Both the position numbers and the translations under genes were made by a program. A stretch of 64,000 nucleotides of DNA from Myxococcota bacterium (GTDB taxonomy: Bacteria > Myxococcota > Kuafuiibacteriia > Kuafuiibacteriales > Kuafuiibacteriaceae). Under the pieces are notes generated by a model, which worked only from the letters and a program-made list of their open reading frames with translations, was not told the DNA's origin and did not search any database. The DNA lies in assembly GCA_039024635.1 (NCBI GenBank), contig JBCCQA010000001.1, forward strand, positions 206,484 to 270,483. Direction: 5' to 3'. Of the stretch, positions 52,605 to 63,074 are shown in pieces. Positions within the stretch are counted from its first letter, which is position 1. Each line of letters begins with the position of its first letter.

Positions 52605-53147
52605 TCACTCGGGGAGGAGCACGGTGTCGATGACGTGGATGATGCCGTTGGAGGCCTTGACGTCGGCCTGGGTCACGACGGCGGCGTCGTTGAGGACGAC
52701 CTTGCCGTCGCGAACGGCCACGCTGACTTTGTTGCCGCTGAGGGTCGAGGCGCTGGACAGGTCCATGACCTGCTTGGCGGGGACCTTACCTTCGACGACG
52801 TGGTAGGTGAGGATTCCGACGAGCTGGTCCTTGTTCTCGGGCTTGAGCAGGCTGTCCAGGGTGCCGGCGGGCAGCTTCTCGAAGGCGGCGTCGGTGGGGG
52901 CAAAGACCGTGAAGGGTCCGGGGCCCTTGAGCGCGCCGACCAGACCGCCGGCCTTGAGGGCCGCGGCCAAGGTGTTGAAGCCCGCGCCGACGGCCACGTC
53001 GACGATGTCGCCGCCGGCGGCGGCCGGAGCCGAGGCGGCAGGCTGGGAAGCGGGGGCCGAGCCGCCGCCGGGGCCTTCATCGGAACTCTTGTTGCCGGCG
53101 CAGCCGACGAGGAAAGCGGTGAGGGTGAGTGCAGTCTTGAACTTCAT
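52605..53147 (-). CDS. Fasciclin (FAS1) domain lipoprotein
   Basis: The lipobox is [21 protein letters not shown]1 motifs are [21 protein letters not shown] and [13 protein letters not shown]. Confidence 0.85.
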
Positions 53148-53206
53148 GTGAGACGTTTCCTGGGCCTCCCGGAGGGTCTCCCCGGGAGGCACCGGAGCCG
53201 CCTAGC

Positions 53207-54121
53207 TCACATGTTGCCGACGTTGAAGCAGAACCCGTTGGACTGCTCTCCATCGACGTCGAGCACCATGACCGCGAAAACATCCTCCATCATGGAGGCC
53301 CGGCAGAGGCTGAAGACGACGTTGAATTCGTTGTTTCCGAGGTCGGCCACCGAGGGGTGGCTGGGGGTGCCCACCCCGTTCGAGAAAACGAAGCGCTCTG
53401 CATCCATACCCGGGTCGGAACCCCGAATCTGCCGGATACCCTGGCTGTTGATGGCGGTTGGCAGGCCGTCCTCGCTGTAGACGGTGGCCTGGAAGCTAAG
53501 GGCGTTGGCGGCGGTGCAGTTCGACTCGTCTCCCTCGAGATCTGCGTTGCCCAAGAAACCGACATTCGTGATGACGGGACCGCCGGGCTCTCGAGCCTCT
53601 CCCCAAACCAGAGTGGGTGCACAGCCGGAGCTGACGTCGTCGGCCGCTACGCACATGTCGAAGTCCGGGTTGTCGGGGTCGTCCTGACAGAGATCACCGG
53701 TGGGCGCACAGTCCGTGACCGAGTTGCAGCTTGGTACGACGCAGCTCATGTCCGCGCAGACCTCACCGAAATTGCAGTCGGTTGCGTCCGTGCAGTCGCC
53801 AGTCATCGAGTCGGGTACGCACTGGCCATTGTCGCAGATCTCGCCCCCACCACAGTCGCTGGCGTCTGTGCAGCCGCCGCCGCCGTTCCCGCTTGCGCAG
53901 ATGCCGACCGACGTGTCGCAAGTGCCGCCCACCGCCATGCATTCCTCGTCGGTCGTGCATGTGGTTTCGCCCTCGTCCACGCAGAAGCCGGCCGGACTGC
54001 AGATCTCGGTGGCCCCGCACTCGGTGAAGTCGGTGCAAGGGGTCAGCTCGGGATCCTCGTCGCCGCAGCCGATCATTGGAATCAGACAGATCGCGCCCAG
54101 CGCGAAGGGGATTCTCGTCAT
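53207..54121 (-). CDS. Cys-rich secreted lipoprotein (TDxxDC-type repeats) with a C-terminal globular domain
   Basis: The lipobox is MTRIPFALGAICLIPMIGCG. Repeats include CTDFTEC, CTTDEEC, CTDASDCGGGEIC and CTDATDCNFGEVC. The longer 545-aa ORF upstream is low-complexity and was rejected. Confidence 0.45.
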   Translation of the reverse strand: MTRIPFALGAICLIPMIGCGDEDPELTPCTDFTECGATEICSPAGFCVDEGETTCTTDEECMAVGGTCDTSVGICASGNGGGGCTDASDCGGGEICDNGQCVPDSMTGDCTDATDCNFGEVCADMSCVVPSCNSVTDCAPTGDLCQDDPDNPDFDMCVAADDVSSGCAPTLVWGEAREPGGPVITNVGFLGNADLEGDESNCTAANALSFQATVYSEDGLPTAINSQGIRQIRGSDPGMDAERFVFSNGVGTPSHPSVADLGNNEFNVVFSLCRASMMEDVFAVMVLDVDGEQSNGFCFNVGNM

Positions 54122-56647: not shown

Positions 56648-57208
56648 TCAGTCTGCGGCAGAGGCAGCGTCTTTGGCCGCCGTTTGGACCTTGGCCGGCG
56701 CCGTTCTCGTCTGAGGCGCGCGGTCTTTGAAGTCCAAGGAAGCCGAGTTGATGCAGTAGCGAAGACCCGTGGGGGCCGGGCCGTCGCGGAACACGTGGCC
56801 CAAGTGGCCGCCGCAGTGGCTGCAGCGGACCTCGGTGCGGGTCATGCCGTAGCTGTGGTCCCGTAGCCGTTCTATGGCTTCGGACTTCAAGGGCTGGAAG
56901 AAGCTGGGCCAGCCGGTCCCGCTGTCGAATTTGGTCTTCGATGAGAATAGAGCTTGGCCGCAGCCGCCGCACACATAGGTGCCATCGGCGTGGTGATCGT
57001 GGAACTCGCCCGTGAATGCGCGCTCCGTTCCGGACTCTCGCAGGATCCGGAACTCGAGGTCCGAAAGCTGCTTCCGCCACTCGGCTTCGCTCTTCTCGAG
57101 GGCATAGGGTCCACCCTTAGGGTGCTCGCCTGGTTTGGCGAGAGCGGTGCAGGCCGCGGCCAGCCCGGCCAGGGTCAAGACGACGAAGGCGATCTTCATG
57201 ACACTCAT
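56648..57208 (-). CDS. msrB: Peptide-methionine (R)-S-oxide reductase MsrB with signal peptide
   Basis: The SelR motifs [11 protein letters not shown]...[17 protein letters not shown] (zinc Cys4 + catalytic Cys) are present, preceded by an N-terminal signal peptide. Confidence 0.9.
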
Positions 57209-57277
57209 CTAACGGCTCCGGTAAGGAGAGGTTACCCAAGCCTTGCCTCCCTGACCGCCAGAAACGATGGTTCGGCC

Positions 57278-58735
57278 GTGCGGTGGATCTCGCTCATGGG
57301 GCTGCTCACCGGCTGCAGCGCCGGGCTGGAGCCCGACGAGGCCCATGGCCCCCGACCCGCGCCTGCCCCCGTCGTCGCGCCCAGCGACCCAGGTCCATCG
57401 GCCGCTCGGCCCCACCCACCTCCCCCGGCGCGTATCGGTCGCTTGAGCCGGCAGGAGCTCGATGCCGCTGCGCGATCCTGGCTCGGAACGCTGCCCAACG
57501 ATTGGCCAGCTCTGCCCGTCGAATCCACCGACACCGGCTTTTCGACCGGAATGGGGCGATCCACGGTGGGCGAGGCCGAGGCCGTCGCGCTGGAGCGAAG
57601 GGCGCGCCTGATGGCGGAGGCCCTGGCTCCCTCGACCTGTGACGCCGACTGCGTTCGGAGCGCGGGCCGCCGAGCCTATCGTCGCATGCTCGAGGAGGTC
57701 GAGGTGCAGAGGCTGGTGGGCCTGCAAGGGACCCATGGTTCGCGGGCGGTGTTCGAAGCGCTGTTTCAGTCTCCCTACTTCCTGTTCCATGTAGAGCTCC
57801 CGGGCGCGGACGGCCGGCTCGACGATCACACGCGCGCGGCCGCGCTGGCCTTGGCGCTGTGGGGCGCGCCGCCGGACGACGCGCTCTCTGCTGCCGCCGA
57901 TGCTGGGACGCTCGACATGGCCTCCGAGATTCGACGCCTCCAGTCCGACCCTCGCTACCGGACCCACCTACGGCGCTTCGCCTGGGAGTGGCTCGGTCTG
58001 GACCGGCTTCAGCAGGCCGTCCGAGACCCCCTTCGTCATCCCGACTACGACCTCGCTGAGCTTGCATCCGAGGCCGAGGCTTGGTTGGCCACCTGGGCCC
58101 AAAAACCCGGCCTGCAGGCCCTCCTCACCGGTGACTGGGACCTTCCCGAGGATGGGCCCCGGGCCGGCATCCTCACCCACCCCGCTTTTCTTTCCACCTT
58201 TGCCAACGCCGAAGCGACTTCGCCCACTCGGCGCGGGATCGCGATCATGGAACGCCTCCTATGCGAAGAGGTCCGGGTCCCGCTCCCAGGTGAAGTGGAC
58301 ATGAGTTTGCCGCCCCCGGTCGCCGGTTTGACCACCCGCGCCCGCTTCGAAGCCTTGGCCAAGGACCCGCTCTGCAACAGCTGCCACGCCCGCTTCGATC
58401 CGATGGGCTTCGCCCTCGAAGCCTTCGACGAAGTCGGGGCCTGGCGCACCGAAGAGAACGGCGTCCCCATCGATTCTTCCGGTGCCCTGCTCTACGGCGG
58501 CGTGGAAGAACCGGTGGCAGGTGCGGTCGAGCTGGCCGAAGCCATCGCCGAGTCGACCGCGGCCCGGCGCTGCTTCGTCGAGAAGACTTTCCGTTGGTTT
58601 CTGCGTCGGACCCCTCGACCCATCGAAACACCCTTGCTCGACCAATGGGCGGAGGAGCTCGCCGAAGGGCGCGACCTCGACGGGCTGGTCTTTTCGATGC
58701 TGAGCCATCCGCTGCAGCAGGTGCGGGCCCCATGA
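57278..58735 (+). CDS. DUF1592/DUF1588-like protein (PSD-type partner of a DUF1552 protein); putative lipoprotein
   Basis: The GTG start gives VRWISLMGLLTGC (lipobox). The C-terminal CNSCHARFDPMGFALEAFDEVGAWRTEENG motif is characteristic of the DUF1588/1592 family. The call is from memory. Confidence 0.5.
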   Translation: MRWISLMGLLTGCSAGLEPDEAHGPRPAPAPVVAPSDPGPSAARPHPPPPARIGRLSRQELDAAARSWLGTLPNDWPALPVESTDTGFSTGMGRSTVGEAEAVALERRARLMAEALAPSTCDADCVRSAGRRAYRRMLEEVEVQRLVGLQGTHGSRAVFEALFQSPYFLFHVELPGADGRLDDHTRAAALALALWGAPPDDALSAAADAGTLDMASEIRRLQSDPRYRTHLRRFAWEWLGLDRLQQAVRDPLRHPDYDLAELASEAEAWLATWAQKPGLQALLTGDWDLPEDGPRAGILTHPAFLSTFANAEATSPTRRGIAIMERLLCEEVRVPLPGEVDMSLPPPVAGLTTRARFEALAKDPLCNSCHARFDPMGFALEAFDEVGAWRTEENGVPIDSSGALLYGGVEEPVAGAVELAEAIAESTAARRCFVEKTFRWFLRRTPRPIETPLLDQWAEELAEGRDLDGLVFSMLSHPLQQVRAP

Positions 58736-60180
58736 GCCTCCAGTTCGGACGCCGCCGGTTCCTGGGAGGAGCGGCGGGGCTTCTTGGGAGCACGCTGCTC
58801 CACCGCGCCCTACGGGCAGAAGAGCAGGGCGCACCTCGGAGGCTAGTGGTGCTCTTCACGCCCAACGGCACCCTGCGGGAGGAGTTCTGGCCCCGAGGTC
58901 CCTTCTCTCGGCCCGAAGAGGGGCTGGTGGCTGCACCCTCTTCACCTCGGGCCTGGCGCGACTTCGAGCTGGCGCCTTTGATGGCGCCTCTCGCGGCCCA
59001 TCGAAACGAAACCCAAATCGTTTGGGGACCTGGCTTGCCCCCTGACCAGTTCGTCGGCGGTGATCTGCCCGACGGGACGGAGCACGATCGGCTGGTCAAT
59101 GACGATGCGTACCGCGCGCTCAACATCACCGACCACAAGAACTACATCCTCCTCACGGGGAGGCTTCCCGCCGAAGTCGAGCTCGGCATGGGCCCGTCCA
59201 TCGACCAGCTCGTCGCAGATCGGATCGGGAGCGAGACCCTCCGCCAGTCCCTCGTCCTGTCCGGCACCCCCTACTTCGCCAATCGAAGAGGCTACGTGAG
59301 CTTCGGGACCGATGGGGCGCCCATCCCCGCCATCGTCGATCCCATCGACGCCCATCAGTTCGTGTTCGGGGACTGGACGGGAGGCGAGCCGGTCCTGGAG
59401 TCCTTGCAACGTCGACGCAGCGTCCTCGACCACGTCGCTTCGGACATCGGCGCCCTGCGGTCCCGGCTCCCCGCTGCGCAACGGGACAAGCTGGAGGCGC
59501 ATCTGGGAAGCATTCGACGGCTGGAGTCGAGCCTGGAGCAGCTCGCCCTGGCCAAGGGGGCCTGTACGCCGGGCACGCCCGGATCAGGGGTGGGCTACAT
59601 CGAAGCGAACGAGGCCCACTTGGAGCTGATTGCGAGCAGCTTTGCCTGTGACTTGAGCCGCGTTGCATGTCTGCAGTTCGCGATGAGTGGCGCGGACGGC
59701 GTCCAGGTGGACTGGTTAGAGGGCTTCGACGTGGTCGGGGCCCACGGTCTGGCCCATCAGAGCGCGGCCTTGGACCTGCCCGAGGGCATCGACGAGGCTG
59801 AAGCCTCCGCCTTGGTCGAGAGTCGTCGTGCCCAGTGGCGGGCCTTGAGTCTTCAGCACGCAGAGATGATCTCGGCCTTTCTTGAGCGCCTAAAGGGCAT
59901 TCCGGACGTGGACGGGCGGAGCGTCTTCGACAACACCCTCGTCCTCTGGATCCAGGAGATGGAGGAAGGCGATCATTGGGACCGCTCCCAGCTCCCCATC
60001 GTGCTCTTCGGATCTGGAGGTGAGGTCTTCGAGACGGGTCAGGTGTTGAGGACCGACAACCGCACCCCCTACAACGATCTCTTGCTCACCATCGCCCGCG
60101 GCTTTGGGGTTCAGGCCGAGCGCTTTGGAGATCCGCGATTCGGCACCGGCGAAGACATGGCCGAGCTGCTGCGGGCCTGA
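58732..60180 (+). CDS. DUF1552-like protein with twin-arginine (Tat) signal
   Basis: The ATG overlaps the upstream stop (ATGA). The Tat motif is MSLQFGRRRFLGGAAGLLGS. The family is typically paired with DUF1592 proteins. Confidence 0.55.
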   Translation: MSLQFGRRRFLGGAAGLLGSTLLHRALRAEEQGAPRRLVVLFTPNGTLREEFWPRGPFSRPEEGLVAAPSSPRAWRDFELAPLMAPLAAHRNETQIVWGPGLPPDQFVGGDLPDGTEHDRLVNDDAYRALNITDHKNYILLTGRLPAEVELGMGPSIDQLVADRIGSETLRQSLVLSGTPYFANRRGYVSFGTDGAPIPAIVDPIDAHQFVFGDWTGGEPVLESLQRRRSVLDHVASDIGALRSRLPAAQRDKLEAHLGSIRRLESSLEQLALAKGACTPGTPGSGVGYIEANEAHLELIASSFACDLSRVACLQFAMSGADGVQVDWLEGFDVVGAHGLAHQSAALDLPEGIDEAEASALVESRRAQWRALSLQHAEMISAFLERLKGIPDVDGRSVFDNTLVLWIQEMEEGDHWDRSQLPIVLFGSGGEVFETGQVLRTDNRTPYNDLLLTIARGFGVQAERFGDPRFGTGEDMAELLRA

Positions 60181-62551: not shown

Positions 62552-62746
62552 TCAGTCGTTGAGGAGCCGCCAAGTCTGCCGCACTCGGGCCAAGAGCGGG
62601 GCCAGGCGCCGGCTCGGACCGAGGGTGGTCGGCACACGGCCGGACAGGGTCGCCCACCAGCTGCCGTCCTCACCTCGGACGATGGTGGCGATCGTGCGGC
62701 CTTCGTCCTCGACGAGGACGGGCTGTTCGACCTGGGCGGTGAGCAT
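62552..62746 (-). CDS. Small hypothetical protein (64 aa), paralog of the adjacent 72-aa ORF
   Basis: The internal start gives MLTAQVEQPVLVEDEGRTIATIVRGEDGSWWATLSGRVPTTLGPSRR.... It shares the DGxWWxTLxGxVxTTLGP core with its neighbour. Confidence 0.35.
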   Translation of the reverse strand: MLTAQVEQPVLVEDEGRTIATIVRGEDGSWWATLSGRVPTTLGPSRRLAPLLARVRQTWRLLND

Positions 62747-62855: not shown

Positions 62856-63074
62856 TCAGTCGTCCAGGGTCTGGAAATCGTCCGAGCTGTAGCGACGGTG
62901 GGCAGCTCGGGCTCGCTCGATGAGGTTGGTCGGGTCGGCGTCCGGGCCCAGGGTCGTCTCGACGGTGCCAATGAGCGTCAGCCACCACTCACCGTCGAAA
63001 CCAGGACGCAGGAAGCCGATCAGCTCTTCGTCATCGAAGATGGGCTTTCCCGTCGGCACCCGGCGAAGAGTCAT
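62856..63074 (-). CDS. Small hypothetical protein (72 aa), paralog of the adjacent 64-aa ORF
   Basis: The product is MTLRRVPTGKPIFDDEELIGFLRPGFDGEWWLTLIGTVETTLGPDADPTNLIERARAAHRRY.... No family was recognised. Confidence 0.4.
   Translation of the reverse strand: MTLRRVPTGKPIFDDEELIGFLRPGFDGEWWLTLIGTVETTLGPDADPTNLIERARAAHRRYSSDDFQTLDD

Follow-up and report, generated by a model that had tools for sequence, protein, structure and literature searches.

What might two exported proteins do together when neither belongs to a family with an established function? We address this question for a pair of neighbouring genes from a Myxococcota bacterium (GenBank assembly GCA_039024635.1), using a stretch of 64,000 nucleotides, hereafter the window, that spans positions 206,484 to 270,483 of contig JBCCQA010000001.1. 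The window holds only one such pair. A preliminary description had read it as a translationally coupled DUF1592-like lipoprotein and a DUF1552-like protein exported by the twin-arginine translocation (Tat) pathway, and our results support that interpretation overall. The first gene encodes a predicted lipoprotein and monohaem c-type cytochrome-like subunit, the second a protein with an alkaline-phosphatase-superfamily fold that lacks the canonical catalytic residues, and the two genes lie side by side at most of the loci that we could assess. We propose that the products form a redox complex of a haem subunit and a metal-bearing phosphatase-fold subunit, a model to which we give about an even chance of being right. 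The pair is laid out as follows.

57278..58735, + strand: gene 1, 485 aa, a PSD/PSCyt3-family protein with DUF1595-like, DUF1592, DUF1588 and DUF1585 regions
58732..60180, + strand: gene 2, 482 aa, a DUF1552 (HXXSHH) protein
58732..58735, + strand: ATGA start/stop overlap of 4 bp between gene 1 and gene 2, indicating translational coupling

The overlap is where the preliminary description had placed it. The gene 2 ATG has an AGGTG 9-13 nt upstream, and the same 4-bp overlap is called at both orthologous loci (L003 and L005), whose pairs are 74-77% identical to this one. Both genes have a G+C content of 0.79 at third codon positions and of 0.48-0.55 at second positions. This is the coding signature of the neighbouring genes, and it differs from that of the long antisense open reading frames (ORFs) that are typical of this 66% G+C DNA. 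The NCBI matches listed at 100% identity, both from a Myxococcota metagenome-assembled genome, are a 'DUF1588 domain-containing protein [Myxococcota bacterium]' for gene 1 and a 'DUF1552 domain-containing protein' for gene 2. A single residue sets the cluster representative of gene 1 apart from the window translation. NCBIfam has no match for either product.

A predicted haem-binding subunit

The domains of gene 1, and the motif on which its interpretation turns, are these.

57644..57796, + strand: PSD5/DUF1595-like region, residues 123-173, 31.7 bits, under the Pfam cut-off of 34.2
57818..58129, + strand: PSD4/DUF1592 domain, residues 181-284, 59.5 bits (cut-off 23.3)
58160..58456, + strand: PSCyt3/DUF1588 domain, residues 295-393, 97.1 bits (cut-off 27)
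58508..58669, + strand: PSD2/DUF1585 domain, residues 411-464, 28.9 bits (cut-off 25.8)
58373..58387, + strand: CNSCH, a CXXCH motif (C366, C369 and H370) inside the DUF1588 match

The scores of DUF1588 and DUF1592, both above their cut-offs, confirm the earlier family assignment, to which DUF1585 can be added. Gene 1 has no Pfam match to DUF1587 (PSD3). The motif, which opens the segment CNSCHARFDPMGF (58373-58411, + strand), had been said to end gene 1; it is real, but at residues 366-370 of 485 it is not terminal.

We aligned 69 relatives of gene 1, which are 27-69% identical. C369 and H370 are invariant among them and C366 is found in 68. Haem c needs an invariant His beside the Cys pair, while a plain disulfide does not. 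Since the His directly after the second Cys is invariant, as haem ligation demands, the motif is most likely, on this conservation, a site of haem c attachment rather than a plain disulfide. Gene 1 carries both marks of a c-type cytochrome, the CXXCH (CNSCH) and Sec export (a lipoprotein signal). Maturation of haem c takes place outside the cytoplasm and requires an exported apoprotein, which fits the Sec/lipoprotein signal of gene 1.

Most relatives (47 of 69) have a single CXXCH and 21 have two. The second belongs to an extra domain of the class I cytochrome c type, which Pfam recognises as Cytochrome_CBB3 (20/69) or PSCyt1 (13/69); to judge from these matches, PSD-family proteins have been fused to recognised electron carriers. 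Pfam also recognises CBM_2 (2/69). Beyond the CXXCH there is no invariant His or Met in the 69 relatives that could act as a distal haem ligand. A His six residues upstream of the first Cys occurs in 62 of them; the window protein has Leu360 there.

The AlphaFold2 model of gene 1 has a predicted local distance difference test (pLDDT) score of 90.5, and a profile search of PDB sequences gave nothing meaningful for the family. The modelled fold is one that is confidently predicted and has no solved relative.

The start codon matters for the export signal, and public calls of it disagree. NCBI places it at GTG 57278, which gives 485 aa and a lipobox, and the Logan assembly contig call begins at ATG 57296, which gives 479 aa and no signal. 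We rejected the ATG 57296 start, as it drops a signal peptide that the orthologues keep. Past the divergent msrB gene no start other than GTG 57278 is plausible, and the gene runs to the TGA at 58733-58735. The features at this end of the gene are listed below.

57278..57316, + strand: lipoprotein signal peptide MRWISLMGLLTG-C13 with lipobox LTGC, short
57317..57427, + strand: Pro-rich tether, modelled with low confidence, about residues 14-50, linking the folded domain to the lipid anchor
57209..57277, no strand: divergent intergenic region of 69 bp between msrB (minus strand) and gene 1, the presumed promoter region of both

L-T-G-C13 matches the lipobox pattern [LVI][ASTVI][GAS]C, and its signal of 12 residues is at the lower limit. 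The lipobox Cys is present at the aligned column in 46 of the 69 relatives. The orthologues, whose N-termini read VRWVALTGLLAAC and MVLGVRRFALTVLIAGC, both retain it (LLAAC in P0030, LIAGC in P0031), and VRWVALTGLLAAC has no internal Met at the position that matches ATG 57296. For these reasons a lipoprotein translated from the GTG, as the preliminary description had it, appears better supported by sequence than the 479-aa form. Residues 1-40 of the model have a pLDDT of 45-51. A promoter scan found no sigma-70 consensus in the 69-bp region, which speaks against a sure promoter call, and a terminator scan found no terminator after gene 2.

A phosphatase fold with other conserved residues

Gene 2 matches the Pfam family HXXSHH/DUF1552 (PF07586) at residues 37-354 with 147.4 bits (E 9.4e-43; threshold 30 bits), in agreement with the earlier assignment, as is its twin-arginine signal. 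Two of its features need to be given.

58732..58818, + strand: Tat signal peptide with GRRRFLGG, a hydrophobic stretch and ALRA followed by EE, the putative cleavage site
59743..59760, + strand: degenerate family motif HGLAHQ (H338 and H342); the family form is H-x-x-[ST]-H-[H]

The RRRFLGGA of the signal lies at 58750-58773 (+ strand). In an alignment of 75 homologues, conservation of R7 and of R8 reaches at least 90%, and 23 of the 75 have a Pfam TAT_signal match. D158, H342 and G427 are invariant. Conserved in at least 90% are H118, Q159, D233, E265, D307, R310, H338 (73/75), D400 and a His at the column adjoining the window's H415.

The literal H-x-x-S-H-H is absent from gene 2. The changes of Ser to Ala and of the last His to Gln are specific to a small clade. 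The literal motif is not a strict requirement of DUF1552 proteins, since the Ser column is S or T in 60 of the 75 homologues and the last His is found in only 35. In a database of 5.8 billion proteins only two clusters exceed 32% identity to gene 2 (P0002 at 77% and P0003 at 74%); these share two insertions with it that are seen in no other clusters.

The preliminary description had likened this protein to sulfatases and phosphatases. Two methods agree that it has the core alpha/beta fold of the alkaline-phosphatase superfamily, with a long helical insertion at about residues 218-305 and 355-388. The family has no Pfam match to the superfamily, nor any PDB sequence match in a profile search of PDB sequences. 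Identity to known members (S1 sulfatases, nucleotide pyrophosphatases/phosphodiesterases, PafA, phosphonate monoester hydrolases and phosphoethanolamine transferases) is 9-15%. Unlike these enzymes, gene 2 has no C/S-x-P-x-R nucleophile motif. The position after strand 1, canonically Asp-Asp, is P-N-G, with N in only 34 of the 75 homologues; at the 'SD(N/H)' loop position the window protein has Q-E, with E in only 30. Neither of these two canonical metal-ligand positions, the two that we examined, is conserved. Judged by where they fall relative to the predicted strands, H118, H338, H342 and H415 would map to the core sheet's C-terminal side, the location of the active site in this superfamily.

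A hydrolytic function deserves consideration here. Gene 2 could be a non-redox hydrolase or transferase that acts on a phospho-, sulfo- or similar ester, with gene 1 as its anchor, substrate-binding subunit or chaperone and the CXXCH as a structural disulfide or metal clip. Several observations speak in favour of this alternative: the superfamily fold is the strongest structural signal of gene 2; hhalign sets a late strand and loop of DUF1552 on the catalytic strand and loop of sulfatases; CBM_2 domains occur in the two gene 1 relatives mentioned above; and the relatives have no conserved distal haem ligand. But the hhalign match, which pairs 'TLVLxGSE...H...LPIVLAGG' with 'TLIFFLSDNG...PLRGGKG' of a real sulfatase encoded at locus L085, covers the C-terminal catalytic strand and loop only and has a probability of only 2.5%. 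We rejected the transfer of active-site residues from that sulfatase on these grounds. The missing nucleophile motif and the altered ligand positions also tell against hydrolysis, and the invariant His of the CXXCH and the frequent cytochrome c fusions are hard to explain without haem. We consider a hydrolase unlikely, if well worth keeping in mind.

Pairing and genomic neighbourhood

In order to assess how often the two genes occur together we scanned one genome per species and kept as loci the best 80 of at least 600 matches. These are mostly from Myxococcota, and also from Bryobacterales, Verrucomicrobiota, Bdellovibrionales, Chthonomonadaceae and a gammaproteobacterium of the Cellvibrionales (Agaribacterium). 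The loci fall out as follows.

63 of 80 loci: DUF1552 gene directly downstream on the same strand
6 of 80 loci: DUF1552 gene directly upstream
1 of 80 loci (L008): DUF1552 overlapping in another frame, counted as paired
3 of 80 loci: cut by a contig end, so that pairing cannot be assessed
7 of 80 loci: DUF1552 not adjacent, in one case (L081) 1.8 kb away

The genes are therefore adjacent at 70 of the 77 assessable loci, and the conserved pairing is evident well beyond this genome. About half of the downstream DUF1552 genes overlap or abut their partner, as far as the approximate coordinates of hidden Markov model envelopes tell. At L003, the locus of the closest orthologue (77%), the pair is flanked by a paa operon on one side and by a gene for an S-methyltransferase on the other, and since these flanks are entirely different from those in the window, the pair evidently moves as a unit. 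At L005 msrB and a glycerol kinase gene are kept beside it.

The order of the genes can vary. Six loci (L027, L041, L047, L052, L064 and L069) have DUF1552 first, and in five of them the stop-free frame of the PSD gene continues beyond the family match for about 300-500 nt, a sign that these five may carry a C-terminal extension. Locus L046 has two complete pairs in tandem, and upstream of them another DUF1552 match that is weaker.

Among the nearest neighbours (68 upstream and 61 downstream) a Pfam census gave no candidate for a third component, as no family occurs in more than three of the upstream or two of the downstream neighbours. This lack of a recurrent neighbour points to a closed two-gene unit and argues against a larger operon. 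Scans for Rfam families and tRNAs gave no match in the window.

The census also bears on another reading of gene 2, as a non-catalytic ligand binder with the alkaline-phosphatase fold, comparable to the lipid-binding periplasmic domain of PbgA/YejM. The pair would then be a sensing or structural complex of the envelope, possibly with the haem as a sensor. However, kinases, sigma factors and other signalling genes show no consistent adjacency to the pair (sigma-70 domains are found in only 2 of the 68 upstream neighbours), and the invariant His/Asp set and conserved Tat signal point to an active site that bears a cofactor. We regard a purely binding role as quite improbable.

The gene on the other side of the presumed promoter region was the subject of a further claim, that the pair follows a secreted MsrB.

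56648-57208, - strand: msrB, a stand-alone MsrB with a SelR domain at residues 48-161

The adjacency is correct, but msrB lies on the opposite strand, divergent and separated by the 69-bp gap, and forms no operon with the pair. Its product has an N-terminal hydrophobic signal (...ALA-KP), which implies, on the sequence, an exported methionine-R-sulfoxide reductase in need of a periplasmic reductant. It could be proposed that the pair works with this enzyme, for instance as the electron source when methionine sulfoxide is repaired in the periplasm, and the short distance and the like arrangement at L005 would agree with this. Yet the L003 pair has no msrB, and SelR occurs in just one of the 68 upstream neighbours, that of the window's own locus. 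MsrB is known to use thiol reductants, not cytochromes. The adjacency is a local one; the census argues against a functional link, synteny largely excludes it, and we consider it very improbable indeed.

A proposed mechanism

Genes, export signals, motif conservation, folds, pairing and the fusions to cytochrome c domains are our observations; from them we infer that haem is attached and a metal bound, that the products form a complex and are coupled by redox chemistry, and the kind of substrate. In our redox model the coupled module would make a two-subunit complex outside the cytoplasm, with translational coupling setting a fixed ratio of the products. Sec would export the gene 1 product in its unfolded state; Cys13 would then be lipidated and the protein held by the Pro-rich tether, and its CXXCH would most likely receive one covalent haem c. 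The gene 2 product would already be folded, probably about a metal, when it leaves the cytoplasm through Tat. It keeps the scaffold of the alkaline-phosphatase superfamily without the sulfatase nucleophile, and has a His/Asp set of its own (H118, D158, H338, H342 and H415). These residues, invariant or near-invariant in the family (where the last is H416, H415 in the window), replace the canonical ones. Most likely the haem subunit would then pass electrons to or from a His-ligated catalytic metal centre that acts on an extracytoplasmic substrate.

A more far-reaching proposal is that a hydrolytic site was replaced in DUF1552 by a His-ligated redox centre, wired to a monohaem cytochrome whose fold lies outside the PDB, and that the pair represents a new class of periplasmic oxidoreductase. 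We put this forward tentatively and with some doubt.

Relation to known systems

Two papers present the PSCyt and PSD domains as first defined in Rhodopirellula baltica and specific to planctomycetes (PMC2754498, PMC5615132). He et al. 2017 (PMC5615132) state that PSCyt3 is always accompanied by PSD4, frequently also by PSD2, PSD3 and PSD5, and noted the pairing of PSCyt3/PSD proteins with DUF1552 (Text S1). The window pair resembles these pairs of Planctomycetota and Verrucomicrobiota in its Pfam families, adjacency, CXXCH and the Tat signal on DUF1552. It differs from them in a gene 1 product of only about 485 aa, which lacks the PSD3/DUF1587 that 63 of the 69 relatives have, and, compared with the forms of roughly 800 aa, the extra N-terminal cytochrome c domain. 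Its DUF1552 motif is degenerate, and its two insertions are confined to its own clade.

A comparable module, PSCyt2/PSD1 (DUF1549/DUF1553) with DUF1501, was described by Kamneva et al. 2012 (PMC3542564), who proposed electron transport and an exported, cofactor-bearing enzyme from the CXXCH and Tat signals. Like the window pair, it sets an exported CXXCH protein beside an often Tat-exported one, and its function is not established. PSCyt2/PSD1, DUF1501 and DUF1800 are, however, different Pfam families from those of the window pair, with marginal sequence similarity only. DUF1501 has a sulfatase-like fold, and DUF1800 pairs with DUF1501. We observed weak matches to DUF1800 in 8 of the 69 PSD-family relatives, to PSD1 in one, and to DUF1501 in one DUF1552 member. 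These are hints that the DUF1800 and PSCyt2/PSD1 modules with DUF1501 may share a distant ancestry with that of the window.

Another system with related parts is that of Cellvibrio Cbp2D and Cbp2E, secreted proteins with single-CXXCH cytochrome domains, CBM2 and DUF1587, which have been proposed to deliver electrons to extracellular enzymes, the lytic polysaccharide monooxygenases (Branch et al. 2021, PMC8981238). As in some relatives of gene 1, a CBM2 is present. In contrast, the structurally characterised cytochrome domain of Cbp2D (X183) is not PSCyt3, and the account of Cbp2D by Branch et al. names no DUF1552 partner. We rejected Cbp2D as a homologue of gene 1, for all that it has in common with the family is DUF1587, which the window protein lacks. 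The earlier statement that the pair has no established function holds: full-text searches of the literature to mid-2026 by these DUF, PSCyt and PSD names gave genomic surveys and no functional work.

Other features of the region

Some further observations may be useful to those annotating related genomes. At 53207-54121 (- strand) the window encodes a secreted repeat protein that is rich in Cys and contains 'TD..C..GE.C....C' modules in tandem. On the native contig (L001) it matches Pfam DUF7107 weakly and a fasciclin-domain gene lies beside it, at about 52605-53192 of the window. Two ORFs of 64 and 72 aa (62552-62746 and 62856-63074, - strand) lie between a glutathione S-transferase gene and an L-serine dehydratase gene. 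They have no Pfam match; ORFs of identical lengths are called at L005, which suggests that they are real small proteins. Finally, just to the right of the window's end on the native contig (L001, 16655-21449), there is a BshC-like gene followed by genes for a PIG-L deacetylase, a GT4 glycosyltransferase and another PIG-L-domain protein. This cluster recurs in L002 and L005 and resembles a set of genes with which this Myxococcota lineage would make bacillithiol.

Significance

The window pair is nothing out of the ordinary: it is annotated already, and its family is very large, known but uncharacterised. In public genomes and metagenomes our profile of 75 DUF1552 sequences matched 32,178 clusters (clustered at 50% identity), 9,110 of them at E <= 1e-30, and some Planctomycetota and Verrucomicrobiota carry many copies. 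The locus itself adds nothing qualitatively new; its interest is that of the family, a long-standing enigma.

What has been gained is a sharper set of questions, for the CXXCH of gene 1 behaves like a haem site, gene 2 does without the canonical catalytic residues and the two genes form a closed unit. The compact Myxococcota pair, free of DUF1587, the extra cytochrome c domain and the carbohydrate-binding module, might offer a convenient minimal system in which to express the two proteins, analyse haem and metal, and determine structures. If the redox-centre reading is true, it would describe a class of more than 30,000 sequence clusters, from degraders and predators that live in soil, freshwater and the sea.

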